A stretch of 63,640 bases of DNA, filler included, from Folioceros fuciformis (lineage: Eukaryota): the NCBI GenBank assembly GCA_049999805.1. It is 4 parts of 4 records of this genome, joined end to end, with 100 filler letters (N's around TTAATTAATTAA, not from the genome) between each part and the next. Parts side by side here need not be neighbours in the genome. Positions count along the whole stretch, not along the records: positions 1 to 27,217 come from JBNGIO010005368.1; 3 more parts are not named here. One strand, 5' to 3'. Shown here piece after piece: positions 1 through 34,099 of the stretch. The notes under the pieces were generated by a model, which ran no database searches, had not been told where the DNA came from, and saw only the letters and a list, made by a program, of their open reading frames with translations. Each line of letters opens with the position of its first letter. Within the stretch, counting starts at the first letter, position 1. The translations under genes were made by a program, and so were the position numbers.

Positions 1-530
1 GGTGTTGGAAGACAAGAGGGTACAGCTTGTCAAAGTTCACACTAGTCAGAACCTTGCAGATGTTCTTATCAAGGGGCTCTCTACGGAGCAATTCGCACAA
101 GCTCGGACACTCATGGGCATGAGGTAGACCACTCTCCTATGAAGGTAAATTGGCCTGTAAGTGGGAGGTTGTAGGGTTATTAAAGCCCAATGTGCTTAGA
201 CTAATGTGTTTAGTCTAATATTAGTGTCTAGTTAAGTATCATTAGTTTAGATTAGCTTAAGCTAATATGTAGGAAGCTTCTTGCGCAGCTTCCTGTGCGC
301 TTCTTGTGAAGCTTCCTGTGCGCTTCCTGTGCGCTTCTTGTGAAGCTTCCTGTGCGCTTCTTGTGAAGCTTCCTGTGCGCTTCTTGTGAAGCTTCCTGTG
401 CGCTTCTTGTGAAGCTTCCTTGGGAGCTCTTCTAAAGGGTATAAATACCCCCTTGAGCTCCCTTGCTATTGAGACTGTGTGAGAGTGTGACCTCTCTTTC
501 TCCTCTTCTCCTTGCCTCCTCCTTCACCAT
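1..530 (+). mobile_element. 3' end of Ty1/Copia LTR retrotransposon (RNase H tail, PPT, 3' LTR)
   Basis: Frame 2..127 reads VLEDKRVQLVKVHTSQNLADVLIKGLSTEQFAQARTLMGMR* (Copia ADxxTK-type tail). Purine tract AAGTGGGAGG is followed by TGTAGGG at 170, and TATA-like GGGTATAAATACCC lies at ~437. Confidence 0.8.
275..421. repeat. Tandem repeat (~23 bp, GCTTCTTGTGAAGCTTCCTGTGC) inside LTR
   Basis: Unit repeated about 6 times, directly visible. Confidence 0.9.
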
Positions 531-539
531 GTGGCTCCT

Positions 540-2655
540 CTAGCGATCCTTCACCTTTGACACCTTGAAGATGAGTTTGATGGAGGCTCCCATCATGGCC
601 AGGCTCGACTTTGCCAAGCCATTTGTGTTGCACACCAATTGGAGCATCTTGGGCCTTGGTGTTGTCTTAGCCCAGCAAGATGAGGACGGATAGGAGAGAG
701 TGGTAGCATATGCCTCACGCAGCAACAATAGGGCAAAAGCCAACTACAGCAGCTACAAGGGGGAGTGCTTAGTGGCTGTGTAGGTAGTTTGTCATTTTAG
801 GCCCTACTTGTATGGCAAGCCCTTACATTGGTAATTGATCATTAGCTCCTCAAATGGTTGATGACCAACACCAAGTTGAGTGGCAAGCTTGCACGGTGGG
901 TCATGATCTTGTAGGACTACGAGTTTCAAGTAGTCCACCGACCTGGGATCACGCACCAGAATGCTGACACTCTCTCCCGAAATCCTCGTGCTAGTTGTGA
1001 GGATATTACAGAGGCTAGGTTGGATGCTAATGAGAGTAAAGTGCAGCACCCATCAGTCTCAGTGATGGTGGTCTTAACATGCTTGGGTGACAATGCTGAG
1101 TCTGGGGCAATCCCGAGTATGGTGGAGCTCCAGCAAACCAAGAGGCAACTGTCACCCCTGGACACCTATGTTGGGGACAAGCGGCCTAAGGACATTCGGG
1201 AGGACCCTGATAGTCTCTTGTTCATATAGACAGGACAATTGAATCCTACCATGGACGCAGTGGAACAAGAGCGAAGTGAGGCAATGGGCAGCTCTTCACT
1301 ACTGGCGAGATGGTTATCTCCTTCAGAAGCTGCCCAATGGGTTGGAGCGCATTGTCCCACCTCCGGCTGATTGTGAGCGATTGATTTGCCGAGTGCACGA
1401 TGACATGGGCCATTTCGGGGTCAAGCGTACTTATAACTTGCTTCTACCACATTTCCACTGGCATGGGATGTATGCCCAAGTCAAGCAATAGGTGGCTTGT
1501 TGCCAGGAGTGTGACAGGGTTAAGACATCCTTCACCATTTAGAACCTGTAGCTGCACCCCTTGCCGATCATGGGAGTGTTTTTCAAGTGGTCTTGTGATT
1601 TGCTAGGTGAACTACCCAAGACACCACACGGGAATGTGTACATCCTCGTCATGATGGAGCATGTTTCCAAATGGGTAGAAGTGGTGGCTCTGCCAGATAA
1701 GAGTTCTAGAAGCACAGCTCAAGCTTTCCTCCAAAATGTATTGAGCTGCTTCAAGAGCTGTGGCGAGTGGCTGACGGATTAGGGGACTGAATTCAGAGGT
1801 GAATTCCATGACTTGCTGGATGCAGCACTCATTGACCATCGCAGGACCAGTAGGGACCACCCACAAGTTGATGGCCTTATTGAACGCATGGTTCAAACCA
1901 TCAAGAAGGGTTTGAGGAAGCTTTGCCTTCAAATGCCAAAAATAGAGTGGGATTTGGCGCTCCCCTACATTGCCATGGGCTACCACATGAGTCGCCATGC
2001 CTCATTGGCCCATTTTACTCCCTATTTCTTGCTGTTTGGGAGGGATCTTGTGCCACCCAATCCCATTGCTAAGCAGCTCTATGAGGTGGTGGACTTGGAT
2101 GATCCTGCAACTTGGGCAAGGGTCATGGGTCAACGTGCGGCACTGTTTCGGCAAGCCATGCCAATGGCCATGGCTAACCTAAGAATTGCCCAACATCGGG
2201 ACACCCTGAGGTATGCCCACACACGTAGTGGTAGCTTCCGGCCCAAGCTCAAGAAGTTCCTAGTTGAAGATTTCGTTTATTTGTAGAGGCAAGCGGGGGA
2301 CGCTCTTGACACCACCACGAGCCGGCATGTGCTACGCATCTAGGCAGTCAAGGACAATGGTGTGCTAGTTTTACAAGGCTCAAATGGACGTACGACCAGG
2401 GAGCACATGAAGAATTGCGCACCATGCCATCTACCCAACCTGGATCCCACCATTGTTACCAGCAATTGGGTGCCCTTAGTCAACTATCCATGCTAGGTCT
2501 GCAGGAGGGTCGATGACCCCGAGCTGATGTTGCTATGCGACTCCTGCAACGGTGGATATCACCTGTTTTGCTTGCAACCCACTTTGGCTGAGGTGCCAGG
2601 GCAGCTGTGGCATTGTCCTTCATATGTTGCTCCTCCTGCAACCTCAGCGGTTTGA
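540..2655 (+). mobile_element. Degenerate Ty3/Gypsy pol (RNase H, integrase, C-terminal PHD finger)
   Basis: KPFVLHTNWSILGLGVVL..ERVVAYASR (RNase H), HDDMGHFG and KWVEVVALP..GLIERMVQTIK..TPYFLLFGR (integrase). Many in-frame stops. A G-rich PPT lies at 2675-2687. Confidence 0.9.
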
Positions 2656-2689
2656 CACACAAGCTTCACCAGTTGGGGGGGGGGAGGCC

Positions 2690-3530
2690 GTAGGTGCTCC
2701 ATCAACTCTAACTTGCTCCCATGAGCATGACTCTCTTTCTTTTTGATGGAGTTGTTCTTGAACTACAAGACTGCTAGGACAAGGCATATTCGGGATTGTT
2801 CTTTCCAAGACTCCCCGAATCTTGCTAACTTGCTGCTTTTCACGACAGCTGACAGGAAGCTGCTAGGGAGGACGGGATAGGTGACATGTTCATTTTGCAA
2901 TCAAGATTGCCGAGACTCCTGAGACTACTTCCATTACTATGCTCGAGCACAAGAAGGAAGGTAAGGCAAGTTCACATTTATAGCTTTCAATTTGTCCCTT
3001 AGCACAATATGGATAATAGCTATTATTCCCTTTTATTTCATTAATTTGGGAACGTAGTTATTACAAGTAATAGACATATTCAAGTAGCTAGAAAAACGCT
3101 GGAACCCAGCAAGTGTGAACACGCTGGAAAAACCCTAGGCAAGCACTAACACCAGGAGGCAAGGGGCAAGGAAGTTAGTCTTTGAAGTTGCACCTGGAGA
3201 TTGCCATAGCTAGAGGAGAAAGGCCTTGTACTCATGTGTCATGAATACAAAGTTGGTTTTCCGTGTGCCCCTCGGATTGGTTCGAAGGTGTGACTGACGA
3301 ACTCCCAGCCAGTGCGCATATCCTAAGCCCAATTGCTTACATTGCAACTTTCATGATTCCCTCTCATCGTAGAGGAAAACACTTCGGGGAAGCTGTAGGT
3401 GCTCCATCAGCCCTAAGTTGCTCCCATGAGCATGACTCACTTTCTTTTTGATGGAGTTGTTCTTGCATTGCAAGACTGCTAGGACAAGGCATATTCGGAC
3501 TGTCCTTTCCAGGACTCCCCGAATCTTGCT
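2690..3530 (+). repeat. Pair of ~137 bp LTR-like direct repeats (2690-2826 and 3394-3530)
   Basis: GTAGGTGCTCCATC...CTCCCCGAATCTTGCT occurs twice, each copy preceded by a purine-rich PPT-like tract. Confidence 0.8.
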
Positions 3531-5759
3531 GGTGGAGATGCACCGTAGAGAGGTAGGGAGAAGGGCTCCTATGAACGTAGCCGAATGTCCAAGAACGAGG
3601 AGTGAAAAGAGACGCCAGCGAGAGTGAGAGAGCTTGGATAAAAATGTGGTGAAAAAAGAGAGTGTGAGATGGCGGGGTGGAGAGGAAGGGGGAGGGATGG
3701 AGTGGAGCATAAGGTCGGCCATCACAAGCGTAAGACTTTGCGCTCGAGAGATCAGTATGTCCGTAAATGCCCAAGACGGTTACTGCCCACAACCTACATG
3801 CTATCAGGGTACTGGTTATGAGCCGGGCCGGATTTACTGTCAGTTTGACATGCGCCTTCTCTCCAAAAGGTCCGGGTCCGTTGGAAATATAAAAAAAAAA
3901 AAAAAAAGAGTTGTGCTTACTTCGGAAATGAGTCTGGCCTGCGGTCGGAGGTACATGTTGATGGTTATTTTCGCACCGACATATGGTCATTGTGGTAAGA
4001 AAGGGTGGGTTTGTATGTTCCATTAGTTGCGTGGTCGAGATCTAATAGATGACAAGTTGAAGTTCAGAGGACTTCAACCACAACAAGACATGGAAGAGTT
4101 GTGGGCTGTACAATAGGTAGGCAAGTTTGTTGGTCTGCCAAGTCTGTCAATACTTGGCAGTACTAAGAGTAGAGAAGGGTGGGGGCAAAAATCGAGGGCA
4201 ATCGACATTGTGCTTTGAAGACAATCTCCCTCACAATGGTGCGTCGGAGGTCAAGGAGGAGAGCTATGGGCAAGAAGGTATATTTATGGTTCTCGTTTTT
4301 GCTGTGGACTTTAATTTTAGGTTTGCTACAATCCAGACATTTAGACAAGAAGGAAACATCTATATANNNNNNNNNNNNNNNNNNNNNNNNNNNNNNNNNN
4401 NNNNNNNNNNNNNNNNNNNNNNNNNNNNNNNNNNNNNNNNNNNNNNNNNNNNNNNNNNNNNNNNNNGCATAGAATAATTCAACATTAAAGCTCCATAAAG
4501 TACAACAACAAATAAGTTGAAGTCTTAAATAACTACCACAAGTTAGGGCTATAACTTCCACCAATGGGTGCACCTTTTCACAAGGTACACCCATATTAAT
4601 CTAAATATGAAACATGCCCTAACCGTAGTTGTGAAGGCAACACCAAAGTACTACTATTTCTAGATGGACATCATGCAATTTGCTGACGTTTAGAGTGTGG
4701 GTGTAGGGGGAGGGGAAGACTATGAGTGTGGGCTAGACAATGGGTTTCGGGAAGGGAACCAAGAGAGCATGGAGATTGAAGAGGATGGTAACCCTCATAA
4801 GAGACATGACATTGAGAATTCAAACAAGGGGCAGTTTGCTAAAGTTGAAGAAGACATGGAGGGAGTGGCTGAAGGTGATCCATCTTGCCCTATATTTACA
4901 GGTAATAACCCAACCACAGCTCATTATGAAACATATGATTCAAGCAATGACCATTTTCAAGAGGAATCTCCTCCAACACGATGAGGCAAACATAGGAAGA
5001 GGACTCCACACATGAACGTCATCTACCTCAAGCGAATTGCTGAATAACAAGGGCAAAAGCAACTTCCCTTATGAAAAGGGTTTGGCCGACAACACTAGTG
5101 ACAAGAACACACTCAAAGGTGGGGCACATGGAAAAGGTATGGCAGGTGCAAAAGTTGTGTTTCACGGTCATTTGGAGAACAATAGCTGAGTATGAGTCGT
5201 AGGTGATGTTGTTTCTGCCTTCACAAGGTGTGGGCACTGCGAGAGAGGAAGTTGAAAGTGGAAAGAAAGATTTGCAGGGCTAAGGGAAATGCAAATTCAC
5301 CAAACAAGCTACCTCCACAAAGCGGGCTCAAAAGCACATGGTTCCATGAGAACACAAGAGCACCTTGCCCACCAGATATCTTTCACAAGAATACAATTAG
5401 GGGGTGTGGTTGTGTGTCACAAAGCATGGGAAAGAGAGTCTTGTATACGGCGAGCCATGTAATGCTATGTGGGGTGCAGCACACCCTAAACCAATACACT
5501 GCCGCATTAGAATTGTCTGTACACATATACCGCATGTTCCTCAATGCATGCAAAGCTCTAAGACCTTGGGATCTACCCAAGATATTTGGCCCTGGGCTTG
5601 CACGAGATCCCACACAAGTTGCTGCCACCAACACCTTGGTAGGAAAGTTCAAATGCAGGCACTTAACATGTTACCCGCATATGTTTGGACCACACACCTG
5701 CAATTGAAGCAAAATCCAGAGCAAAAGTGTTATATCACATGCAATCTAACATTTTAACT

Positions 5760-11931: not shown

Positions 11932-14900
11932 TCATTTTTCTAGGGATCCATTCACCATGTGGACTCCACATATTCCCCTTTTCATTTGTTGGCGTCCCCG
12001 CCAACTTACCAATAGTATTTCTTCACATGCCAATATTTCTACCCTAGTTGGCAAGTTAGGCCCATTGAGGTACTGGGGTTGGATGGATCCATTCCTATAA
12101 ACCTCCAGCACCCTATAAGGCCCCATCCACCTAAGATACAGCTTTCCTGGAAAATGCATGTACCTATTGTTGTATAACAAAGCCAAATCTCCATGAACAA
12201 CATGTTCATGTTTAGACAACTTTTGGTTATGCCATTTCTTCCTCTTCTCTTGGACATCAAGAAAAATAGCTAGGGCCCGTTCCGTGTTCTCATCATGTTG
12301 TACAAAACTTGGTAGCCTCTCCAGTTGACTTTCCTCCACTGGCAACCGGTTGCCCTCTTGCATTCTCAAGGTAGGTATCTCAAATTCAATTTTCATGACA
12401 GGTGAGTGACCATAGGTGAGATAATAAGGGGTTTGTTGGGTGGTGACCTTCTCCGCAATCCTATACGCCCATAGTACTGAATGAAGCTTCCTATCCTAGT
12501 CATGAGCATAAGTAACGGTTAGCTTGCTAAGAATCCTACATAACAACCCATTAGCCTTCTCTGTGAACCCATTGGCCTTGGGATTGTAGGGAGTGGTCTT
12601 CCTATGGCTGATATTGAAGTATTTATTCATGTGCTTGACCACCTCATTGATGAAGTGGGTGCCCCTGTCACTGACCAGCTCCAACAGGCATCCATACCTT
12701 GTGATGATCTACTCAAACAAAAATCTGGCCACCACATTTGCTATGCCTACGGGCAAAGCTTGAGCCTCCACCATGCGAGTGCAATAGTCTGTTGTCACCA
12801 AGATGTGTTGGTTCTGCCTCCCCTTGGTCTTTGGCTGAATTGGCCCCACGAAATCAATTCCCCACTTCTCAAATGGTGCCAATGCTAGGATGGGAACAAG
12901 TGGCCATTGTGTTGTCCTGGTAGGCTTCCCCACCCTTTGGCACGCATCACATCTCTTGATGAACTTCCTAGCATCAGCATCCATTATTGGCCACAAATAC
13001 CTTGCTGCAAGGATTTTTTTGCAGGTCACATGGGCTGCATAATGCTCTTCAACTTCTCCTTCATTTGAGGAGCTGATAACATGCTCCACCTGGTCATGCT
13101 TGACCCACAAACGTCCACTCTATTAACCCCTATGCGATACAACTTGCCCTTGTACTTAACCACCAGCCTAGTGAAATAGAGGAACAGCCGTTGCTGCTAT
13201 CGCAAGAGATCAGCTGGAAACTCCCCCGTGCCCAAGAAATCAGCTACCTCTTGGTAGAACGGCTTACGGAACCCCCTTCTCCCCTTCTCATTCGGCGTTG
13301 CGCCTCCATCTCCTAGTAGCTTAGCATTTGGCTTGGCCCTTTCTTTCCTAGCCAGCTTCGCTGAGAATGCCTCATCTGGGAAGTCATCTTCCTGGTCCCG
13401 ATCCACACTCTCAGTCTTCAGCCTTGATAGGAAATCAGCATTCAAATGCTTGCGCCCTTCTCTTGTTTCCACGGTGAATGTGGATTCTTGTAGATGCGAA
13501 ATCCAGCGGGCTATACATCCCAATAGATTTGCCTTGTTGACAAGATGCTTAAGAGCAAAGTGGTCAACATGGAAGAGGAACTCATATGAGAGGAGATAAT
13601 GACGAAACTTACGACATGAGTAAACCATGATTGTGATGTACTTGCGCTCAACCTCCGTGAGTTGGCATCCAGCATAGTAGATTGGGTAGTCTCTCCTCTT
13701 CTCCTCCCGTTGGCTTAGGATTGTCCCAAAAGAAAATGCAGACACATCCACGTACACATGAAATTTCTTGTCCCAATCTGGCCCCTTGAGAGTTGGTGTT
13801 GTCACAAGGGTGGTCCTCAAGTCCTGAAACATAGCCTCCCTTTCCACCGTCCACTCCCAAGGTTGCTCCTTCCTCAATAGGCCAGTTAAAGGGGCAGCCC
13901 ATCTAGCAGAGTTGGGAACAAAATAGCGGCAATAACCCACCATACCAAGGAAGCCACACAACTCCTTGAGAGTGGTTGGAGCCCTCAAGGCAGCAATCAC
14001 CTTCACCTTATCCGAATCAACCTCAATGGCCCGTGCTGAAACTCTATGGCCTAGCAAGATCCCTCTAGCCATACCAAAATAGCTCTTCTTTGGATGCAAA
14101 CAAATTTGAGCCTCATGACACCTAGCCAAGCATAGCCTTAGGTGCTCCACGTGTTGCTCCATTGTCCCAAATTTGCAGAAGTCATCTATGAACACCTCCA
14201 GGAACCTGTGGAGGAAATCCTTGAAGATATTGTGCATGCTGCACATGAAGGAACCTGGTGCTCATGTCAGCCCAAATGCACTCCTCTTGTAGGCGTATGT
14301 CCCCCAATCCATTGTGAAGGCTATCAACGGCCAGTCGCTCTCCCTTAAGTGAAGCTGGTTGTAACCGGAGTAGCCATCCAAGAAAGAATGCATCATTCGA
14401 CTAGCTAACAAATCCAAAATTTTGTTAATGAATGGCAAAGGGAAGTGGTCCTTCTTGGTAGCCTTGTTTAGCCTCCTCCAATCTTGGCACACTCGAATCT
14501 TATCGGGTTATTTCTTAGATACCACAACAATTGGGGCCACCCACTCCGTGTTCACAACGGGGAAGATGATATTTACCTTCAAGTACAACTCCAGCTGCTC
14601 CTTTACCTTCATGGAGTACTTTGGATTCAGCTTGTACTATGGAATTCGAATAGGGACAGCTCCTGGCTCCAAGTCAATCTTGTGCTCCCCCCACTTCTTA
14701 GGAATTCCCTTCATGTTCGTCACCTCAAAGGCAAACACATCAATGAACTCAGCAAGGAGTTGCTTCATGCCTTCCTCCAACGTGGCATCCAGTCGTTGTG
14801 CAAACTTCAGCACCTTGCCGAGTAGCACCTCTACATCCTTGATCTCATTCGCTTGCACCCACTCATGTTCCACCGGTGCTGAATACTCCAAATCCCTCTT

Positions 14901-18699: not shown

Positions 18700-21600
18700 C
18701 TTTATCTCTAGGCAGAATGCTACTCTTCAGTCATCCTATTTGGCTGTAGCAGCTGGTAATCCCTCCACCATTAGCTTTGATGATGTGATGGGCACTCTCC
18801 TACAAGAGGAGTAGAGCTGTCACGAGTCTGGGCAGAATTTTAAAATCAGAGGCAAAAAGGTGTTAGTTGCAGTCAAAGGCAAGACATTTGGGAAAGGAAA
18901 GGAAAAATGGAAGAAGCAATATAGCTTCCCTTTGCCTTCCACCCCTATACCCAAATGCCAAGGGATATGCAATTGGTGTCTAATTCCTGGACACTAGGAG
19001 AGAGAATGCTGCAAGAAAAAGGCTAGTGAGCCTGGTAAGGAACCAAAGTTTGAAGTCCATTATGCAACCAAGGACATGAAGACAATGGTGAAAACCTCAG
19101 CTTCAGCTCTTACAGTGTGTCTAACTGACTCTGGAGAGCCTTCTGCTCAATGGTTTGTCGACTCTAGCACTAGCACACATATCTGCAACAATTTAGAATT
19201 GTTCACCTCATTCAGGAGTCAACTGACTCCACAATCAATTTATGTGGGAGATTCCAGAACGGTAGCAGTCAAAGGTGAGGGTAGAGTGACAATACCTCTT
19301 CCTAGTGGTGCAACTCTGCAGTTAGAAAATGTGCTATTTGTACCCTCCATGACTAAGAACTTGATATCTGTTCATGCTATCACCTGTAGTCAGTCATATG
19401 GCTTTTGATTTGAAGCCAACAACTGCTACATCTACAGTCTAAAGGATACCATTATTGTTTTAGCCAAAGCTATAGTCACTGGAGATCTGTATCAGTTGAT
19501 TACCTCTAATGGTGAAATAAGTCAAACTTTCTTAGTTACCTTCAAGTCTCAGGCCAGCTTATGGCAGGCTAAGCTTAATCATGTAAATAAGGCCAAGCTA
19601 GATTTGATGTCAACTTCAAACTGCTATAGGGAAAAGCTTCCCTCATGCTTCAAGCCCCTGCCTGTATGTGGTGCTTGTGTCTTGTCCAAACAGAGGGAGT
19701 TACCCTTCAGGAATAAGCAGGTATTCAGGGCTACAGAAGTGTTAGGCCTAATACATGCCGATGTAGCTGGAAAAATACAAGTGAAGTCACTTGGTGGGGC
19801 AGAGTATTACCTCACACTTACTGATGATTATTCACGATATACTTGGACTTATCCTTTGAAATACAAGAGTGATGCCTTTGACCATATTGAGTCATGGATT
19901 CAAATGGTTCAGCGACAAACTGACAGCCTTGTTAAGTGTTTTCAAATAGATAATGGAGGCAAGATTGTCGGGTGTAGTTATGATGCACTATTCGAAAAGA
20001 GTGGCATCATCCAACAGCTTTGAGTACCCTATACACATCAACAAAATGGTGTGGCAAAGAGGAAAAACTAGACCTTGATGAGCATGACTCGTAGTATGCT
20101 ATCTTGGGCAGCTTTACCAAAGAGTTATTGGGCAGAGGCAATTACCACAGCAACATACATCCTTAATAGGCTGTTAACTTCTGGCCTTCGGGATAAGACT
20201 CCATTTGAAGCATTTTGGGGCAGGAAGTCTAGCCTATTACATCTTCATGTCTTTGGTTCCTATGACTTCGTCTACATACCTGCTGAAAAAAGGAAGAAGT
20301 TGGATGATAGGTCAGCCTTTTTTTTACTTCCTTGGCTATTCTGAGGAATCAAAGGCATACAAATTGTTTAATCCCAAATCTCACAAGGTGGTGCTTGCTC
20401 GAAGTGTTACCTTTATAGAGCTGTTTAAACCTAGGACTAGGCCCATGTTTGGGCCAGACATAAGTCCCCTACAAGATCTCCTTGAGATTCAATATGGCGG
20501 TGATACCTAAGCGTCTCCTTTACATGCACATGTCTCTTTCCCAGACTTAGAGGATGGATGTACGGATGAGCATGTGCTACTCTATACTGATATTGATGAT
20601 GTCCCACATGTTGATAACGGATTACCTCAGTTGGCTGAGGATGATGCACTCAGTCTTCATGACTCTGATCATTCCTCACAGCTAGGTGAAGGGACTGGTG
20701 ATGTGGAAGAACCTCCAGAACCTCAACTTAAGGCAGAGGCTCCTACATAGTCTGTGCAATCATGATACCCTGCAAGGGAATGAAGAACACGAGAAAGTTG
20801 GTCAAAATTCCCTTATCAATCTATAGACTTTCGGACCTTAGCTCATTTAGTAGACTTTACTGTACCTGAAGTTCGACCACACCCTCTGACTTATCAAGAG
20901 GCCCTGAATGGGCCTGACGATGCTCATTGACAATTGAGCATCAATGATGAGTACAATAGCCTCATTATGAACAAGACATGGGAGTTGGCAGACTTACCTC
21001 CTGGTCCTAAACCAATTACCTATAAGTGGCTGTTTGAAACAAAACTCAAGTTAGATGGCACAGTAGCCCGATATAAATCTCATCTTGTTGCTCGAGGTTT
21101 TAGTCAAGTCCCTGGGTTAGACTACAATGAGACATTCTCACCAGTTGTTAAACCACCCTCCATTAGAATTCTGCTGGCGATAGCTGCCGAGTTTGACTTG
21201 GAAGTTCACCAGATGGATGTGTGCACTGTGTGTCACGGTGAGCTTGAAGAGGAAATCTACATGCAACAACCAGAAGGCTTTGTTAGTAGAGAGTTCCCTG
21301 CAAAGGTCTGTAAATTCCTTAAGACCATTTACAGCCTCAAGCAAAGCCCTCGAGCATGGTATGAATGGATTGCAAATTACCTCCATACAGTTGGCTTTGT
21401 CTAGTCCCCAGCAGACACCAATGTTTGGTATTTTCCAGAAGGGGTCTACTTTGTGATCCTAGCCCTGTATGTTAATGATGTTATCCTCCTCATCAACAGC
21501 CCTAGTATGTTAGAGAAAGCAAAACAGATGCTAAGAGTAGAGTTTGAGATAGCAGATCAAGGAGACTTACAGTTCTGCTTGGGTATCCAAATCTTGCAAG

Positions 21601-21730
21601 ACCGCACCCACAAAACAGTGGTTGTCCATCAGACTAAATACCTGAAGGAGATTCTTAAGCGCTTTGGTCTTGACTCTGCCCGTCTTGTTGCCTCCCCTTT
21701 TGCTATGAAAGAAAAGCTTATAGGTGCTAT
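18700..21730 (+). mobile_element. Degenerate Copia gag-pol (5'- and 3'-truncated)
   Basis: Zinc knuckle CNWC..GH..REC, protease WFVDSSTSTHIC, integrase IHADVAG/TDDYSRYTW, RT NKTWELADLP/LKQSPRAW/LALYVND. Confidence 0.92.
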
Positions 21731-24700
21731 GTACCTGAAACAATACATACATATATTGTATAGTTAAGGTCCAATCATTAGGTTAAGTAGGTTTTAATGG
21801 ACATGACCTAATACGGCTGGTATTATGGCTGTAACCGTTCACGATGCGGTGACACATAAGATGCATTGCCGCCTAATAGAACACAATCTTACAATCCAAA
21901 ACTTTCCATGGTATCAGAGCAATGGATACCTTGACCTGCTCGTTTTACAAGCGCGCTGAATACAAGAACCCAATCTCTATTTCTGAGTTTGGCATATTCT
22001 TGCACTTGATCCAAGTTTGTTGGCCAAGTGGCGTGCCTGCAGAGGTTTGGGAGATGGTACTCGCGTGCTATTTCCTCAAGCCGCAGGTATGAGTGCAGCA
22101 CAGCTGCAGGCGTTCTTGTCTCAGCATGCTAAGCTCAAGGAGAAGGGAGCGCCCGAATAGACGTGCTAAGAGGCTGTCTAACCTGGCAGACTATCTTGCT
22201 CGATCTGAGAGAGAATATCAAGAAAAGTTAGCACTTGGAAATAGGTGGCATCAAGTTTGGATTAGATGGATATAATTGGAGCCATGTAGATATCTCAAAT
22301 GTCTTCCAATAGCTGAAAAACATGTCTTCCCCCTCTAAGTCCACAATCATTTTTGTTTCACCTAAAACACCTGATGATGTCCACACATCAATGTTTAGTA
22401 AAATATAGGATCTGTTTAAACAGCAACCAATTAGTCCATGCATTCATTACCTCAATGAGTACGCTCTCAGCGTTGTCCACAAGCTTCACACAGAGTACTG
22501 TTTCTCAGATTAAGTAAGCATCCAAATGTCACTAGAGGTAGAAATTCAGTCTCACCTGCCTCACTATTGCAAGGCACACTTTCACCCTATTTCTTGAGTC
22601 TTCCCTTTAGGCCATAAAAATGTCACGGCAACAACCACCAACGCCGATTGCCTTGGCAAAGGAGGATAAATTTGATGGAGAAAACTTCAATCTCTAGAAG
22701 TTTCGCATGGAGGAGCTACTCAAATCCCGGAACCTGTGGGAGTATGTTGGAGCAACCGTGATAAGGCCTCAACCACCAGCCACAGCACCAGCATATGAGA
22801 TAGCAGCCTGAAAGGCCGCAAATCAGCAGGCAAGAAGCACATTAACAATGAGTGTAAAGAGCTCTCACATAGCCACCTTCATGGTCTCCATCACGTCAGC
22901 TGCAGAATTATTGCAGCAATTACTTGAGGTTTATGTTGCCTTTGACCTGATGTTGAAGACCCATTCATTGAAGTCGTTTGTTGAACTTCGAATGTTCGAA
23001 AGGGACATAGTGGCTGAGTTTATGCTCAAGTGGAGGAGCTGGCAAACCAAGTTTCTCTCTCTTGGCTTTCAAATCAAGGAGGAAGTCATGGCAGTAATTC
23101 TACTTTCACAGCTGCCGGAAAGTTGGACTACTATTGTCCAGACCCTGCAAAATGTGGCAGCTATCACTGTTAATCGAGTGATTTCAACAATGCTCACAGA
23201 AGAAAATTGCAGGAAAATGGCTTCATCATATGGAGCTGAAGGTGACAAGGCTCTTTTCGTTAACAAACTTGGAAGAGGGCGTAGTAGAGGCAGACCGTTC
23301 AACAGAGGACGAGGTCGTGGTCGAGGCACATTCTTTCGACCACAGCCATTTACTGGAAGTAAACCAAAGCCACCTTGTGGCTACTGTGGAATTCCTAATC
23401 ATACATGGAAAGTCTACAGGAAAAGACTCGCAAATGAGTCATGTGGCAGTCATTCAGGTGGTAACCTAGCTGTCACAATGAAGAAATATTCCAAAGCTTT
23501 CACAGCCTCTGTACAAGATGAAGTGAGAGCAGACTCTCATGAAGGTCCTACCTCTGCCCTAGTAGTGACCTGCTATGCATCCAAGTCCGAGCATGCTTGG
23601 TATATAGACTCTGGAGCCTCACAGCACATGACTCCGCATCATTCCTCCTTCACAAACTTGCAGCCAACATAAGGAGAGCGGTTTGTATGCTTGGGTGACA
23701 ACTCCACACACAAAATTGAAGGCCAAGGGATTATATAGCTTAACCTTCAACCTGACCAGCACCTGACAATACCAGATGTGATTTGCGTACCAAGTCTCGC
23801 AAAGAACTTGGTATCAGTACGGAAAATTGATGAGTTAGGATGCTACATATGCTTTGGCGCCTACAAGTGTGTGGTAGAAACACCTGAAGGCAAGCTCATG
23901 GCCACATGAGGACTTCGATCTAATGACTTGTATCATCTGGATGTCAAGCATGACCATGCCTATGCAGGTAATCACTCTGCCCATATGGCAAAACCTTCTC
24001 TCACATACCTGTGGCACCTGAGACTTGGACACTTGAATTTCCAAAAGTTAGTAAGAATGCATCAAAAGAAGCTGGTCAATGGACTGAAGTTAGATACCCT
24101 GATTGACTTTGGAGTGTGCAAAGCATGTGTGCTAGGCAAGCACCATAAGACACCATTCCCCATTGAACTTGCCGAAAGAGCAACCAGAGTGCTTGGGTTA
24201 GTAGATAGTGACATATGCGGACCTCTACCTACATCTATTGGAGGCAAGCTATATTTTATTAGCTTTATTGATGACTACTCTAGATTTACCGTAGTTTATT
24301 GCATGAGACAAAAGTCATCTACTCTTACCTGCTTCAAGGAGTACAAGGCATGGGTTGAGACCCAAATCGAGGAGAAATTGAAAGCACTTTGTTCAGACAA
24401 CGGTGGTGAGTATGTCTCAGGAGAGTTTTAGGCCTTTTGTGGTGAACATGGCATTGTGAGGCAATTGACCAATGCTCGCACACCTCAGTAGAATGGAGTA
24501 GCTGAAAGGAAAAACAAGGCACTTGAAACATCAGCATCTAGTATGTTAAGCTATGCAAAGCTTGCAAAATGCTACTGGGTAGAGGCAGTGGCGTATGCTA
24601 CCTTCATACAAAACCAAATTGAACATGCTTCTGTCCAGGACAAGACAACTTTTGAGTACTGGGCTGGATCAAAGCCCAACATATCACACATGCGGGTCTT

Positions 24701-27030
24701 TGGATCACCAATGTACGTACATGTACACAAGGACTTACGAAAGAAGTTTGAGCCAACATCTACTTCCTGCATATTTATAGGCTTCACTGAAGGTATCAAA
24801 GGATACAAGGTTATTGATAGGTAGTAACGCAGGGTGACACATTCTAGAGATGATATTTTTGTTGAAGGTGTAGAGTCTCATGACTCAGTGGGAGCATACG
24901 ATCTGGACTCACCAGCTAAGTCAGAAGATAAACAAGAAACGACGTTCACCAAGCCTGCAACACCTGTAGCTGTAGCACAACCACCACAAGTCACTCCGAC
25001 TGTGGTTGGACAAGGACCACAAGCTCCAGCAAACACTCAATTTCCAATCACACCTGTACCTCAACCTCCTGTCAAACCTGAAGACAGTGTTGATTCAGAA
25101 CCCGTAGTGTTCTGAAACTTTGACATGGAGGGAGTTGTCTCACTTGGAGACATGTTTGCTACACCTTCCACTTATCAACATGTGTCAACACCTGGTGTAG
25201 TGTAGCGAAAGAAGCTGAAAGTCTTATCAGTTCCTGTACCACCACGAGACAGACCAATCAAGTCTACTGCTGGGAAGATAGATCTGTACAAAGTACATGA
25301 CTGGCGGCATCTCAAAAAGCTTGCAAGTCACTCAAAGTCAAACTTGACTTACTGTCTTACAACTGGTACAGAATACTTTGAACCTCAAACATATAAAGAG
25401 GCCCTAGCTTGCCCTGACGTAGAACATTGGAAAGTAGCAATTGCATCCAAGCTTGGTTCCCTAAAGGAGAATGAAACATGGGAGCTGACTAAACTACCGC
25501 CTGGAAGGCAAGTTGTGGGTAGCAAATGGGTGTTCAAGGTTAAATTAAAGGCAGATGGTAGTATTGAAAGATATAAAGGCAGGGTTGTAGCAAAAGGCTA
25601 CTCATAAGTTGCTGGCATCAATTATACGAACATGTTTAGCCCTAAGTGAAGATGAGTACATTGAGACTTTTCTTGGCACTAGCAGCAGTCCACGACTATG
25701 AGCTTGAACAGCTGGACGTTACCATTGCAATTCTGTATGGACAGCTCAACAAGGAAATATATATGGAGCCTCCAGCTAGACTAGTAGCACATGGCAACCC
25801 ACATCAGTATGTGTGTAAGCTTAAGAAGACACTTTATGGGCTCAAACAGAGCCCTCGTGCATGGTTTTCACACATCCATAATTTCCTAGTCTCACATGGT
25901 TACACTCCACTACATACTGATAATAATGTGTATATCAAAAGAGGTAAGGGCAAGGAATTTTTGGCATTTGCCATATACGTAGATGACATCAATATCATGT
26001 CCAATAGTCTACGCATGATTGAAGAGTTAAAGGAAAAGCTGAGGTCATCATTCAAGATGATAGTTGCAGGAGCCTTAATTTTCTGTCTTGGAATGCAAAT
26101 AAATAGAGACAGGAAAAGGCAAAGAATCTTTATGCATCAAGGAAAATACATTAGGCAGATTTTGGCACGCTTCCAGATGATCAAATGTAAGCTAGTTTCT
26201 ACTCCTCTTGAGCAAAATGTCAAGTACAAAGCGCAAGTGAGAGAAACTGAACTTACGGAAGAAGAAGAACGACTGATGGAGGAATCCCCATATGCCTCTC
26301 TGTGGCAGTGTCATGTACCTCATGCTTGGAACTCAACCAGATCTTGCATTCTATGTAGGCATACTATCACAATTCTTGGCGAACCCTGCAATGGCACATT
26401 GGCATGCAATGCGGCGACTGTTTAGGTACATCAAGGCCACTGAGGACTGGGGTTCACTAAACAGAGGGGACGCACCAAGAGCTCTTACATTGATTGCCTT
26501 CAGCGATGCTGACTAGGCAAGTGATCACGATGGCAGGCGTAGCATCTCCAACTACGTATTCTTGCTGGCAGGGGCTGCAATTTCTTGGAGCAGCAAAAGA
26601 CAGTCAACCATGGCTCTCTCATCCACGGAGGCTGAATACAAGTCATTGACTGAAGCGTGCAAGGAGGCCATCTGGGTAGTGGGAGCTCTTACCGAGTTGG
26701 GAACACCACAGCAACTACCACTAAGCCTGATGTGTGATAACCAAAGAATCCAAGATTCCATGCGAGGACTAAGCACCTAGAAGTTCAACATCACTTTATC
26801 AGAGAGCAAGTGGCGAGCGGGTTGGTGCAGGTAATCTATTATCCTACCGACCTCATGACAACATATGTGTTGACGAAAGCCTTGAGCAAGGCCAAGCATC
26901 AGCAGCACGCACACAGCATGGGACTTTGGGCGGCATTCGACAAGCATATTTGGCAATCAAATCTAGCTGCAGCTAGCAGCAGCCGCCAGGTGCACTTCCA
27001 CAAACACAAAGACGAAGACAAAAAGTAACT
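21731..27030 (+). mobile_element. Near-complete degenerate Copia nested in the previous element
   Basis: ~175-bp LTR ending CA at 21908, PBS TGGTATCAGAGC at 21909, gag, WYIDSGASQHM, IDDYSRFT, IYVDD, SSTEAEY. The 3' LTR is absent. Confidence 0.92.
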
Positions 27031-29160: not shown

Positions 29161-29622
29161 TGCTCTTGCTTTAACTGCGTGGCTCTGCCCACCCCGCTGA
29201 AAGGGGGTGTTACTGCTCTGGCATTTCCGCGTTCAGCAACGAACTTGACGGAAAGCCCATACATCTCCAGCAAATACGCACAGCATCTGCGTTTGCAGAA
29301 AGAGAAAAACAGGCATGGTCGTTGAAGGCTTTCAGATCGGAAGGCACCCGATGAAAGGGTACCTATCCGTCTGCAATGAACGCGACAGTGGTGCCTGCAG
29401 CCAAAGAATGGCCTTCACCCAGGCCCCGTGCGTGAATGGAGCACCATTGACACGCACGGACCATGTCGGGTACCAACCAAGGTGGTCAAATTTCCCTCGA
29501 GGTTTGCCCGAGTCCCAGCAATGCAGTCGCAGGGGCCATGTTTCCTGAACAGCGCAATGCGATGGATGTGAGATATACCCCGGCAGGACATCTCAGGTGC
29601 GCTTTCGCCTTCGCGTTCGATC

Positions 29623-32600
29623 ATGCCACCAATGTCCTTTCAGTCACTGCGACGGACAGGACGGGTCCTTCTGTCGTGGATTCGACTGAGCCAAATTTGT
29701 GGTACAACCGTGGGAAGAGGTCATCACTCTCGCCTCCTGACTGCAAATTTTTCAAGCTACGAAGCCTGGCCGAGTAGCGGTTTTGCACTTCAGTCAGGGT
29801 TGGTGGATTCGCAGCCATGTGCCGTGGACATGCATAGGCTCCCATCCAAGCGGAGCTGCCTGGGTGATGGTGAAGCTGGTGGGCTTTTTGAGTACCCAAG
29901 GAGTGTAACGCCTGAATCCGTGAGCTGGCTATGTGAGCAGGAGCAGCTCAGTAAGGCTGTTGAGGCCCTGGGGGTTCTGGCGCAGGCAGGCACTGGTCTA
30001 TCCAAACCACTCCTCTACGCAGTCCTCAGACAATGTGTAATTAAGAAGGATCTGGTCCTGGGTCGCCATGTCCATGCGGTCGCGGTGAAAGTGGGCTATG
30101 AATCGGACACGTTCTTGTGCAACCACATCCTACGAATGTACTCATCTCATGCCAGTCTGCAAGAAGCTATGAATGTCTTCACTGTGGTTGCCGAACCAGA
30201 TGCATTCCTCTGGTCTTCTATCCTTTCTGCTCATGTTAAACATGGGCAAACTAAGCAGGCCATACAATTGTATCATCAGATGCGCAGGTCAAAGGTGAAG
30301 CCAGATGCCCATGTGTTTGTAGCAGCCCTACAGGCTTGTGCAAGGGGAGCAGACTTGACAACTGGGAAGCAGGTGCATGCTGATGTGGTGGCCAGTGGGG
30401 TGAAGCCTGACTTTTTCGTTTCTTGCTCTTTGGTGGACATGTATGCAAAGTGTGGCAACTTGGAAACCTCTCAAAGAATTTTTGACGGTCTTGGTAGAAA
30501 AACTGTGGTAACTTGGAATGCCATGATAGCAGGGTATGCCCGACGGGGCTTCGGTCTGGAAGCCCTTCGACTTTACGCCTCCATGCGAGAGGAGGGCATC
30601 ACGGCTCCTGATTCTGTGACATTTGTTTGCCTCCTGCAGGCGTGTGCAAATGTGGGATTCCCAGCCTTGGAGAAGGGGAAGCAGCTTCATGCGCAGCTTC
30701 ATGAACGAGGACTTCATGCTGATGTTGTTGTAGGCTGCAGCCTGGTAAACATGTATGCGAAGTGTGGCAGCCTGCAGGATGCCGAGGCCTTGTTTGACAG
30801 ACTTCCTCAAAAGAATGTGGTTACGTGGAATGCCATGATGTCAGGATTTTCCCAGCAGGGCATGGGTCAAGAAGCCCTTCGTCTATATGAGGCCATGCTA
30901 GTAGAAGGCATCACCGCACCCGATTCTGTGACATTTGTATGCGTCCTACAAGCGTGTGGACACTTGGGAACTCTTTCTTTGGAGAAGGGGAAGCAGATTC
31001 ATTTACAGCTTGGAGAAAAAGGGCTTGATACTGATCAGTCTGTTGTCACTAGTTTAGTTAACATGTATGCCAAGTGCGGCAGTCTACAGGATGCCCGGGC
31101 TGTGTTCGATGGACTTTGTCAGAAAACTGTGGTGACGTGGAATACTATGATAGGAGGATATTCCCAGCAAGGCATGAGTCAGGAAGCCTTTCATATATAC
31201 AGTGCTATGCTAGAAGAAGGCATCACTTCACCTGATTCTGTGACGTTTATATGCCTCCTGCAAGCATGTGCATGTGTGGGCATGCCAGGATTGGAGACGG
31301 GGAAGCAGCTTCATGCCCAAATCAAGGAACAAGGGCTTCAAGGTGATGTGTGTGTAGCCAACAATCTGATAAACATGTATGCGAAGTGTGGTAGCGTACT
31401 TGATGCCCAGGGAGTGTTTGACGAAAGCAGTGAAAAAACTGATGTAACATGGAATGCGTTGATAGGAGGATACTCCCAACAGGGCAGGGGTCAGGAGGCC
31501 CTTTTGCTTTACAGAGCTATGCAAGAAGAAGGTGTGGTTGAACCCAACTATGTGACATTTGTGTGCCTTCTGCAGGCATGTGCAAGTTTGGGTCCCCAGG
31601 CTCTGAAAATTGGGAAGCAACTTCATGCACATATCCAAGAACAAGGCCTTGAAAACGTGGTTGTAGGTTCCAGCTTGGTAAACATGTATGGTAAGTGTGG
31701 CAGCCTAGAGGATGCCCGGAACATGTTTGACAAACTTGGTGCAAAAGATGCGGTGACATGGACCGCTCTAATATCAGCATACTCTCAGCAGGGCATGGAT
31801 CAGGAAGCCCTTCATCTCTTCAATGCTATGCAAGAAAAAAGCATCTCTGCGCCTGATTCTGTAACCTTTGTGTGCCTCCTGCAGGCATGCGCAAATGTTG
31901 CTGCTTTATATCCAGGAAGGCAGCTACATGCCGAAATTAAAGCACAAGGACTTCAAGCTGATGTTTCTGTGGCGATTAGCTTGATAAACATGTATGCAAA
32001 GTCTGGTAGCATGGTTGAGGCACAGCATGTGTTCGATGCATTGCCCAAACGAGACGTCATTGCCTGGAATGCTTTGATTGCTGGATACAGCCGTCAAGGA
32101 GACAGTGAAGTGGTCCTTGACTTAGTTCACCAGATGCAAGAGGATGGCATCCATCCAGATGGCGTCACATTTGTAAGCATATTAACAGTATGCAGTCATG
32201 CGGGACTAGTGTGTAAGGGCAAGGAAATCTTTGCATCTATGAGGAGACAGTATGGCATTGCGTGTTCTCTTGAGCACTACACCTGCATGGTGGACCTCCT
32301 GGGTCGTGCAGGCCATCTGGACGAAGCACTAGCGGTGATAAGGACTATGTCTGTGCTACCTCATGCTGCAGTTTGGCATACTCTGTTGGGTGCTTGTAGA
32401 AAGTGGAACAATGTGGAGGTAGGACGCCATGCCTTCAATGAAGTGGTGAAGCTAGATGAAAAGCACACCCCAGCATATGTCTTGATGGCTAACATATATA
32501 CTAGTGTCCAGATGTTGGAGGAGGCACAGGAGATGCAGGCAAGAAGAATAGTAGTTGGTGCGTGGAAGCAGCCAGGCCGGAGTTGGTGGACGGATATGAA

Positions 32601-32700
32601 TGGCCTGGTGCATAGCTTTTTGGTTGGGGACAAAAACCATGCTGAAAGTGATGGCATATATGCAAAGCTAAAACAGCTTGCTTTGAACATGAAGAAGTAA
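29623..32700 (+). CDS. PLS-class PPR protein, E/E+ end (WW-type PG box), no DYW; start codon uncertain
   Basis: Intronless 1025-aa ORF with repeated LVNMYAKCGS/VTWNAMI/PDSVTFVCLLQAC triplets, an E domain, KQPGRSWW..HSFLVGDKNH, then a stop. Confidence 0.93.
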   Translation: MPPMSFQSLRRTGRVLLSWIRLSQICGTTVGRGHHSRLLTANFSSYEAWPSSGFALQSGLVDSQPCAVDMHRLPSKRSCLGDGEAGGLFEYPRSVTPESVSWLCEQEQLSKAVEALGVLAQAGTGLSKPLLYAVLRQCVIKKDLVLGRHVHAVAVKVGYESDTFLCNHILRMYSSHASLQEAMNVFTVVAEPDAFLWSSILSAHVKHGQTKQAIQLYHQMRRSKVKPDAHVFVAALQACARGADLTTGKQVHADVVASGVKPDFFVSCSLVDMYAKCGNLETSQRIFDGLGRKTVVTWNAMIAGYARRGFGLEALRLYASMREEGITAPDSVTFVCLLQACANVGFPALEKGKQLHAQLHERGLHADVVVGCSLVNMYAKCGSLQDAEALFDRLPQKNVVTWNAMMSGFSQQGMGQEALRLYEAMLVEGITAPDSVTFVCVLQACGHLGTLSLEKGKQIHLQLGEKGLDTDQSVVTSLVNMYAKCGSLQDARAVFDGLCQKTVVTWNTMIGGYSQQGMSQEAFHIYSAMLEEGITSPDSVTFICLLQACACVGMPGLETGKQLHAQIKEQGLQGDVCVANNLINMYAKCGSVLDAQGVFDESSEKTDVTWNALIGGYSQQGRGQEALLLYRAMQEEGVVEPNYVTFVCLLQACASLGPQALKIGKQLHAHIQEQGLENVVVGSSLVNMYGKCGSLEDARNMFDKLGAKDAVTWTALISAYSQQGMDQEALHLFNAMQEKSISAPDSVTFVCLLQACANVAALYPGRQLHAEIKAQGLQADVSVAISLINMYAKSGSMVEAQHVFDALPKRDVIAWNALIAGYSRQGDSEVVLDLVHQMQEDGIHPDGVTFVSILTVCSHAGLVCKGKEIFASMRRQYGIACSLEHYTCMVDLLGRAGHLDEALAVIRTMSVLPHAAVWHTLLGACRKWNNVEVGRHAFNEVVKLDEKHTPAYVLMANIYTSVQMLEEAQEMQARRIVVGAWKQPGRSWWTDMNGLVHSFLVGDKNHAESDGIYAKLKQLALNMKK

Positions 32701-34099
32701 ATAAGGGTTAGTTCCATGTACGGACAGTCTATATATTATATTATAATAATGCGGAACGGAAGGTGTGGATAGGCATGCCAAAGAGGTAGCTGTTGAGTGC
32801 GTCAATCTGACAGGCGTACAGCCATGAACTAGGTATGAAAAGGGAATTGTCGTTTGCGTGGATGCTTGTTGGTGCAGAAGTCATAAAACTTGTCCTGATC
32901 TCAAATTCCTCTCTGCAGTTCTTGCTATGAGGAGCAAGCTGTAGCCTGTAATATTCGACAGCTACCCGATCATTGCGTGGCAAGTTTACACGGGTTTAGA
33001 ATCGGACTGACGATGTGAAAACGCCTGAATTCGTGAAGAAGCTAGCTTCTTTTGTCACTGGCGTGATGGCCAGAACGCAATTTTAACGGGTTGGTATCAT
33101 TTGTCTTGTGCAGTGCGTGTGTAACATGTGCTGATGTGGGCGTATCACCAATCTTCTGGAGTGCTTTGGGATTGACTACAACCTAAAAATCGTCTGAAGA
33201 CTGACGATGAGAACCAGCGGTAAGAACTATCCGTATCGTTGCAGGTAAAACCTTACGTTGGGTTTTTCAGATCAGCGTGAGTGGCTGCGTTTCTTGAAGT
33301 TTTACAACTGGGCCAAGGAAGCTAAACTAGGTTTGTGGGGAGGCGGAAGCTGGGGAATCGTTGGCAGCGAAGCAAGAATAGTTGACCGCAGACTTTACCG
33401 TCTGGATGTCTCTATCGGTGTGTGGTAGTGCAGCTAATGTGTGGATGAAACCTTGCGTGAATTCGTGAGACAATTCTTTCCCGTGCGTTTTCTAAGAAAC
33501 TGGAGGAAGACACAAAGAAGCTCGTTCAATGAAGTGCCGTTTGCGCCACGTGATGGCCCTCTATCAGGCACACTTGGATATCTCTAGATCCATGGTCTCT
33601 TGTGAAGGGAAATCGTAGGGTGGAAAGTCGACTTACGTGGTGTACAGTAGAAAGGCGGGAAGGACGAAGAGGACGGAATGATGTAAGCTGTCTGCATCCT
33701 GAGTAATTTGCCTCTTGAAATACAGCTCGCTTTGTCCTTCGATTTGAATGTGTTTGTTTGGAAGGGGGTTGTAGAGCCGAATCCTGGGCACGGCTCTCAA
33801 GATATGAGGATCTTTTGTATTAGACAAACGCCTGTATAATGTTAAAAAGCTATGCACTTGAGCGGCACGGCATTTTAATAAAGGGCTCCCTTATGTGAAG
33901 TACTGAGTAATCGGACGTAGAAGACTCATACGTACTGTGGTGAGCATTTCATACTTCAGCTTCCAAACATTAGAGATCAATAAGACTCGGAATTCCAGTT
34001 TCTGTCGATTTGGTGTTCGTTGCATACCTTTATGCTTATGGGAAGGGATTTGAAGTGACCTGGCAAGCTTTGTAAAAGCCTGCGCAGGACGGATATGCA

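Follow-up and report, generated by a model that had tools for sequence, protein, structure and literature searches.

LTR retrotransposons choose the chromatin into which they insert by means of accessory reader domains on their integrases, and to our knowledge the chromodomain is the only such reader with experimental proof. The stretch of DNA analysed here, 63.6 kb from the land plant Folioceros fuciformis (the window), raises the question of whether a different reader can occupy the same place. A sequence-only reading of the window had proposed that a Gypsy integrase in it carries a PHD finger fused to its C-terminus in place of a chromodomain. Is this finger genuine, does it belong to the family of the element or to one broken copy, and what would it do in a relative that is still active?

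The element that carries the finger is badly decayed (Table 1). Its pol order, with RNase H at 544-1082 before the integrase at 1255-2490, is that of Ty3/Gypsy elements. A relative of 929 residues with the order RT-RNase H-integrase-PHD (P0003) aligns by tblastn to 1255-2622 in one frame (64% over 456 residues); its residues 262-362 lie on 556-831 in frame 1 and its residues 321-439 on 732-1082 in frame 3. Because P0003 aligns only from residue 262 on, the RT and everything upstream of it are missing from the window copy. Two frame changes occur along this alignment, from frame 1 to frame 3 and back to frame 1. From 1243 to 2655, frame 1 encodes the integrase and then the PHD finger without any change of frame, so that the proposed fusion to the C-terminus of a Ty3/Gypsy-type integrase is upheld, with no frameshift from 1255 to the TGA at 2653-2655. 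The integrase-PHD frame is interrupted by seven internal stops, all of them TAG (1489, 1540, 1549, 1780, 2284, 2341 and 2494), which is the signature of C-to-T and G-to-A transitions. With seven internal TAGs and two frame changes, without RT and gag and with one zinc ligand lost, the copy cannot work; it is a dead, 5'-truncated Ty3/Gypsy LTR retrotransposon, a fossil.

Table 1. Features of the decayed element and its flanks, with positions counted along the window.
Feature	Position	Strand	Evidence
Flank cutting off the 5' part of the element	1..543	+	Sequence reading, repeat search
RNase H remnant, split over frames 1 and 3	544..1082	+	RT_RNaseH_2 E 1e-25, RT_RNaseH E 8e-19
Integrase_H2C2 zinc-binding N-terminal domain	1360..1527	+	PF17921 E 4.2e-15, P0001 residues 40-95
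Integrase catalytic core (rve)	1585..1863	+	PF00665 E 5.9e-11, P0001 residues 115-207
Integrase C-terminal region: long helix, small beta-barrel, CAPCHLP linker to the PHD finger	2140..2490	+	Alignment, AlphaFold2
PHD finger (C4HC3)	2491..2625	+	PF00628, PDB phmmer, AlphaFold2 pLDDT 83-91, Foldseek
TGA closing the pol frame, nine codons past the last PHD ligand position	2653..2655	+	Frame reading
Polypurine tract GGGGGGGGGGAGG	2675..2687	+	Direct reading
Putative start of 3' LTR and high-copy non-coding DNA	2689..3530	+	Internal repeat, contig depth

An LTR-like stretch lies downstream of the finger. The sequence-only reading had placed a polypurine tract after the finger, and a purine run does lie downstream of the TGA. 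A segment of 146 bp at 2681-2826, which includes the end of this tract, recurs at 3386-3530 with 91% identity, and the pair is the only repeat of the post-stop region inside the window. Over 2703-3423 the summed depth of contigs is 140-375, compared with 50-120 for the coding part, and beyond 3527 it falls to 9; this pattern is consistent with an LTR that has more copies than the interior of the element, contig depth being a poor measure of copy number. The 5' LTR, the primer binding site and the 5' half of the element are absent from the window. The left edge of the element, near 545, adjoins an LTR-like stretch of the flank. This flank consists of a 41-residue open frame ending at 127, followed by the TATA-containing LTR-like stretch, and it has 23-bp tandem repeats at 253-434. 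The 41-residue frame, which we take to resemble the end of a Copia-type pol, is matched weakly in tblastn by two other Copia-like stretches of the window (E 0.1 and E 4).

The finger is encoded on the + strand in frame 1, in frame with the upstream integrase, and follows the C4HC3 pattern of PHD fingers. The translation of 2491-2625 (C X V C R R V D D P E L M L L C D S C N G G Y H L F C L Q P T L A E V P G Q L W H C P S Y) has the spacing C-X-V-C-(11)-C-D-S-C-(4)-H-(2)-C-(15)-C-P-S-Y, in which seven of the eight zinc ligands are kept. The codon of the eighth (2623-2625) encodes Tyr, and an in-frame TAG (2494-2496, the X) lies between the first two ligands. The sequence-only reading had described just such a finger, with one stop and the last Cys lost, and both the frame and the Pfam match agree with it; the start that it gave also stands, whilst the end that it gave, 2630, lies a few bases beyond the last ligand codon. 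A search with the Pfam PHD model, which it had suggested as a check, matches a 57-residue piece with E 3.8e-12 and 46.5 bits, where the curated cut-off of PF00628 is 24 bits. In the 471-residue read-through of integrase and finger (P0001, stops as X), which also gives the Integrase_H2C2 and rve matches of Table 1, the same model scores E 3.1e-10. No chromodomain (PF00385) is matched in this read-through at E <= 1, and the site of the finger is that of the chromodomain in chromoviruses; the phrase 'in place of a chromodomain' is thus right as a statement of position only. As a chance control, the seven-ligand pattern was sought in the six frames of the window, where it is present once, and in 100 base shuffles, none of which contains it. 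The feature is a genuine PHD finger in a broken copy.

That the window holds a single copy of the finger, with a stop and a lost ligand, might be taken as the mark of a one-off: a chance pattern of Cys and His, a captured host exon, or a fragment of a host gene adjoining a broken integrase. However, a stop codon, a purine tract and an LTR follow directly downstream, and the integrase-PHD junction is also found in other contigs of the same organism, both of which argue against an accident of this kind. These contigs come from two runs of one sample, in which 0.97 and 0.92 of the sampled words were present, and 208 and 195 of their pieces, respectively, can be placed on 540-3600 at a likeness of at least 80%. 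Of the pieces from the first run, 43 have a likeness of at least 99% and 165 a lower one, from which it follows that the organism has many older copies of the family. Three diverged contigs span the end of the finger and differ from the window at that point, also inside the lost ligand's codon. A run presumed to be RNA has a contig that is about 82% like 1329-2471 and continues into the start of the PHD finger.

Within the 63.6-kb window itself there is no second copy of the PHD-integrase element. The only other integrase match, at 12367-13017 (- strand), was considered as one and rejected, being 25% identical and part of another element. The window also contains two intact, intronless frames for PLS-class PPR proteins with E and E+ motifs (29572-32697 and 56910-60017), which are 59% identical to each other. 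Their best named matches are from the lycophyte Diphasiastrum (43-47%); the identity is 33-42% for matches in ferns, conifers, mosses, Selaginella and a liverwort. These matches place the host among the land plants, though in no particular clade of them.

Whether the finger is an accident or a trait is decided by its constancy in the family. The last 171 residues of the copy, comprising the integrase C-terminus and the PHD finger, were used as a query against a collection of 5.8 billion proteins. PF00628 is listed for 63 of the 69 longer relatives and for 74 of the 87 relatives of similar length. The chromodomain model PF00385 appears neither in the precomputed Pfam lists of these 156 relatives nor in the 12 relatives that were scanned. 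Search matches and cluster members together gave 219 proteins, which were fetched and compared by BLASTP; 202 of them match the C-terminal query and 186 cover its PHD part. All eight C4HC3 ligands are found at the aligned place in 159 of the covering relatives. In the other 27 the PHD finger is still recognisable but damaged or incomplete, some ligands being lost or the end cut off, and a different domain is found in none.

The conservation extends to individual residues. In an alignment of 45 sequences whose identity to the window copy is 34-68%, C118, C133, C136, H141, C144 and C159 are invariant, as is W157, the Trp that precedes the seventh ligand, and C121 and C162 are at least 90% conserved. 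The integrase C-terminal part has its own invariant columns (L14, A17, Q18, H19, R20, Y25, G31, V46 and C96), and the CAPCHLP linker that leads from the barrel to the finger, at least 90% conserved in this alignment, is also kept in the taxa named below. An exhaustive HMMER search with a protein from the liverwort Calypogeia (P0257) found 1158 representatives of 50%-identity clusters at E <= 1e-30, and the C4HC3 pattern is intact in 134 of the best 150 of these.

A pattern search of metagenome contigs provides a further sample: its 699 matches include 686 stretches that code for a relative, and 80 loci were kept. The finger follows 57 of the 60 copies of the integrase C-terminus in these loci; the other three copies match weakly (45-47% identity) and lie, in three loci, on the opposite strand. 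Every one of the 80 loci is decayed: no open frame exceeds 554 residues, and a stop lies inside 37 of the 57 fingers. The long intact proteins of the family are database predictions. At the nucleotide level the loci are 65-69% identical to the window over coding parts only, and none of the 80 matches it after the stop. LTR-like pairs of about 290-620 bp flank five of the 16 loci tried.

Copies of the family thus keep their PHD finger, in the fetched proteins, in the metagenome loci and in the best clusters alike. Together with the PF00628 match and the empty shuffles, the counts of intact and damaged relatives and of clusters lead us to reject a chance pattern or a one-off capture, which we regard as very improbable. 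A PHD finger at the end of the integrase is a trait of a large, old family of the green lineage.

The relatives that were scanned have the domain order RT-RNase H-H2C2-rve-PHD, with the RT upstream of RNase H seen in P0003, P0006, P0015 and P0030. In three of the 12 (P0007, P0011 and P0021), a DNA_methylase domain lies between RNase H and the integrase, and the C-terminal PHD finger is kept. Pfam finds no DNA_methylase match in the pieces of the window. Moreover P0003, which has no DNA methyltransferase (DNMT), spans the RNase H-integrase junction of the window with only about 170 bases unaligned, and since this alignment leaves no room at the junction, the window's own lineage is without a DNMT. 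Close relatives stop 2-14 residues past the PHD finger, as the window copy does. Many algal relatives have 300-500 further residues after it, with no Pfam match, and in these the finger may work together with something else. In a protein atlas, the best look-alikes are PHD-only chlorophyte clusters (0.90 and 0.89); mollusc PHD-integrase clusters at 0.84 are a lead only.

The hosts of the family are spread widely over the green lineage. The liverwort Calypogeia fissa has relatives that are 67-69% identical over the last 160 residues, and those of another liverwort, Marchantia polymorpha, are at 45-46%. Moss relatives occur in Sphagnum magellanicum (54-59%) and also in S. fallax, a relative in the streptophyte alga Coleochaete scutata is at 48%, and those of the chlorophytes Pleodorina, Haematococcus, Tetrabaena, Chlamydomonas eustigma and Chromochloris are at 43-47%. 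No Selaginella relative is among the 156 listed, and a paper on a PHD-bearing Gypsy element of Selaginella was not found in the literature searched. The sequence-only reading had described such elements as known from just a few lineages, Selaginella for example. This rarity is contradicted by the liverwort, moss and algal hosts and by the number of the best clusters that carry the finger.

Published accounts of PHD fingers in retrotransposons already exist, algal Gypsy elements among them, and the window copy is one more member of its family. REM1, reportedly described by Perez-Alegre in 2005, is said to be a PHD-bearing retrotransposon of Chlamydomonas, and the CR1 elements, reportedly described by Kapitonov and Jurka in 2003, are likewise said to bear the finger. 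In their accessible parts, PMC6673714 and PMC8557442 state that PHD fingers are widespread in retrotransposons, and the latter, writing of the transposons of C. reinhardtii, calls the finger 'a common accessory domain'. What the window family shares with these Chlamydomonas and other elements is a PHD accessory domain within the polyprotein; the host here is a land plant. Where it is described, the position of the domain differs. In the Chlamys elements, as far as the accessible text describes them, the PHD finger is inside the RT or the endonuclease (PMC8557442), and the figure legend for the Gypsy element Gypsy-7a_cRei lists it before INT (PMC9940879), whereas in the window family it follows the integrase.

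A second point of contact with published elements is the DNMT. KnitGypsy-Dnmt3 and Gypsy-DNMT3 of streptophyte algae have a DNMT in pol (accessible text of PMC5890265), as do P0007, P0011 and P0021, unlike the lineage of the window. Because these three relatives end in the same finger, DNMT-bearing Gypsy elements of the RNase H-DNMT-integrase layout belong to the PHD family; a PHD finger goes unmentioned in the main text of PMC5890265 (de Mendoza et al. 2018). Nor is PHD mentioned in the main text of the REXdb classification of plant retrotransposons (PMC6317226), where Selgy and Phygy are given as short non-chromovirus clades from a lycophyte and a moss. A PHD-tipped Gypsy integrase of land plants was not found described in the literature searched, which was mostly open-access.

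The likely ligand of the finger can be approached through its similarity to solved structures. By sequence (phmmer), 65 PHD chains in the PDB are matched at E <= 0.001, the best being WSTF (1f62, E 8.7e-14). The nearest solved fingers are those of WSTF, KMT2D/C, KDM5D/A/B PHD1, BAZ2B/A, Lid, ATXR5, CHD4, DPF2/3, UHRF1/2, ORC1b, PHF21A and AIRE; the fingers of ING, BPTF and TAF3 are not among the 60 PDB matches listed. The last 171 residues were modelled with AlphaFold2 at a mean pLDDT of 80.4, with higher values over the finger (Table 1); the model places a helix at residues 2-29 and strands at 45-89 in the integrase C-terminal part. In Foldseek comparisons the modelled finger lies within 0.7-1.2 Å of the PHD fingers of DPF3b, ATXR5, BAZ2A and KDM5D. 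It superimposes on the ATXR5 finger bound to H3 at 0.9 Å (46 columns, 50% identity), and on the BAZ2A finger with its 'unmodified H3K4' peptide and the KDM5D finger at 1.1 Å each.

The nearest solved fingers read the unmodified H3 tail, some of them according to their PDB titles. As a group, the host H3-tail fingers (WSTF/BAZ1B, BAZ2A/B, KDM5 PHD1, ATXR5, UHRF1, PHF21A and AIRE) match the window finger down to E 1e-6 by sequence and at 0.9-1.2 Å with 42-50% identity over 45-46 columns by structure, and they share with it an acidic stretch before the third ligand and an L-L-C-D motif. They sit in cellular chromatin proteins, whereas the window finger is the last domain of a transposon integrase. 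The finger of the family is likely to be a reader of the unmodified H3 tail, a class assigned by similarity to solved fingers.

The same comparisons bear on whether the finger reads histones at all. It could be a general zinc module, used for nucleic-acid binding, multimerisation or a RING-like activity; the region gives a weak Pfam match to Prok-RING_1 (E 0.079, under the cut-off), the PHD and RING folds are related, and the integrase already has another zinc module in H2C2. But every significant match, by sequence or by structure, is to a PHD finger that binds histone tails, and for several of these the solved structure includes an H3 peptide. The Trp that precedes the seventh ligand, a residue characteristic of PHD fingers, is moreover invariant. 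A zinc module of this general kind is accordingly improbable, and a histone reader is preferred.

Because the nearest solved fingers read unmodified H3 and the finger occupies the chromodomain position, a role in tethering integration suggests itself. In active relatives the finger would bind the N-terminal H3 tail, most likely one that carries no methyl group on lysine 4. Once bound, it would tether the complex of integrase and cDNA to nucleosomes of a particular chromatin state, and this tethering would bias the landing sites of new copies in the way that chromodomains guide chromoviruses to H3K9-methylated chromatin. By this analogy, the role to which we incline, with some reserve, is the tethering of the integration complex to nucleosomes with H3 lysine 4 unmethylated. 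The parallel with chromoviruses is close in layout: in both, RNase H is followed by the integrase, and a histone-reader domain lies at the end of the integrase before the stop, the polypurine tract and the 3' LTR. They differ in the reader, a chromodomain there and a PHD finger here, and would differ in the ligand, H3K9 methylation there and probably the unmodified H3 tail here. Gao et al. (2008), cited in PMC6673714, showed that the chromodomain directs chromoviruses to heterochromatin, and the accessible text of the same paper (de Mendoza 2019) likens retrotransposon PHD fingers to the chromodomains of chromoviruses.

A finger conserved throughout the family need not choose sites. After integration it might recruit the host's chromatin machinery or block it, so as to shield new copies from silencing, for instance, and in the relatives with a DNMT it might act as the reader partner of that enzyme. 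PHD-like domains paired with DNA methyltransferases are known as reader-writer combinations, and a DNA_methylase domain and a C-terminal PHD finger do share one polyprotein in P0007, P0011 and P0021. The possibility that an accessory reader domain is unrelated to integration is also raised in the accessible text of PMC6673714. Against this, the finger occupies the position of the targeting modules of chromoviruses, and a conserved CAPCHLP linker joins it to the barrel in members with and without a DNMT alike. The partnership with a DNMT meets the added difficulty that the window's own lineage, as the P0003 alignment indicates, has none. A function apart from targeting is on this evidence unlikely, though it deserves some weight. 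The overall explanation that we favour as reasonably probable is that the window holds a dead copy of a green-lineage PHD-Gypsy family, in whose active relatives the finger would serve to target integration through the H3 tail.

More tentatively, and with the balance somewhat against it, the PHD-tipped integrases may constitute one ancient Ty3/Gypsy clade spanning chlorophytes, streptophyte algae and non-seed land plants. Such a clade would parallel the chromoviruses but read the unmethylated H3 tail in place of H3K9 methylation. In some algae it would subsequently have acquired a DNMT3-type methyltransferase, and the current classification of plant retrotransposons would recognise neither the lineage nor its PHD domain. 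The remaining interest of the finding lies in the breadth and age of the PHD-integrase family, in its absence from the classification of plant transposons and in its putative targeting role. The fossil in the window itself adds one more host to the range of the family, and, for non-seed plants, a model of the PHD domain could be added to the pipelines that annotate plant transposons. If confirmed, a second widespread reader at the position of the chromodomain would offer a natural comparison for the evolution of target choice, and targeting by the PHD finger, if true, might explain where the family accumulates in algal and bryophyte genomes.

Between the RNase H and integrase domains, three relatives of the PHD element recovered by protein searches (P0007, P0011 and P0021) have a C-5 cytosine methyltransferase domain, and their polyproteins terminate with the same PHD finger as the family represented in the window. 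Judged by polyprotein sequence, Gypsy elements with a DNA methyltransferase in this position are members of the PHD family, since they share its terminal finger. The finger goes without mention in the main text of the published Gypsy-DNMT3 description (PMC5890265).

The finger is not always the end of the polyprotein. Algal relatives such as P0015, P0030 and P0037 continue for a further 300-500 residues C-terminal to it, a tail for which no Pfam match was obtained. Of the 60 cluster representatives whose linker is standard, 41 carry a tail longer than 200 residues; the lineage of the window copy lacks the tail.

The best Foldseek E-values for the AlphaFold2 model of the integrase C-terminal barrel and finger (m61598bc2ce5e) were to the tandem-Tudor-PHD cassette of UHRF1 and the Tudor-PHD cassette of PHF1. 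The rmsd is high (14-16 Å), so the modelled arrangement has domain order in common with these cassettes but not orientation. Integrase-PHD fusions may also occur in animal retrotransposons: protein-atlas clusters annotated as integrase zinc-binding, PHD and integrase core (score 0.84) have Mollusca as their commonest recorded phylum, which we treat as a lead only.

Two features show that several copies of the PHD element have an LTR region that is rearranged or repeated internally. The first is a 146-bp direct repeat of 91% identity in the window (2681-2826 and 3386-3530, spaced by 705 bp), which includes the last part of the polypurine tract as well as the LTR start. The second is the presence, in contigs of the same organism, of joints that jump backward within 2691-3273. 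The DNA by which the PHD element is truncated has, at 253-434, a 23-bp unit repeated in tandem seven times, within an LTR-like stretch and shortly before a TATA-like motif.

Two pentatricopeptide-repeat frames, mutually 59% identical and surrounded by nested transposons, identify the host as a land plant that has PPR genes of the RNA-editing type. The Rad9 and fasciclin frames are probably host gene exons. A 187-residue open frame (11935-12495) adjoining the integrase of the second Gypsy element has no Pfam match.

Other coding features of the window
Feature	Position	Strand	Details
Gypsy element remnant (RT, RNase H, integrase)	12367-14843	-	different element; 25-30% identity to PHD family
Copia-type element remnants, two (gag, integrase, RVT_2)	19409-26422 and 40125-42470	+	
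PLS-class pentatricopeptide-repeat frame	29572-32697	+	1042 residues, intact, intronless, E and E+ motifs
Open frame, fasciclin domain match	34076-34609	+	E 1.7e-08
Open frame, Rad9 domain match	54366-55082	+	E 1.9e-21
PLS-class pentatricopeptide-repeat frame	56910-60017	-	1036 residues, intact, intronless, E and E+ motifs

The integrase-PHD frame has seven internal stops between 1489 and 2494, every one of them a TAG. Of the 57 PHD copies in related metagenome loci (L001-L080), 37 have a stop inside the finger, recurrently at the same codon between ligands 1 and 2. This pattern of stops points to transition-driven decay of PHD-family copies, as expected for methylated transposons. A public sequencing run of the same sample (X3), compared with 540-3600, differs by 155 C>T and 37 G>A changes, no other type of change occurring more than 10 times, and looks like a bisulfite-converted library. 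As such, it could yield the methylation state of the PHD element.
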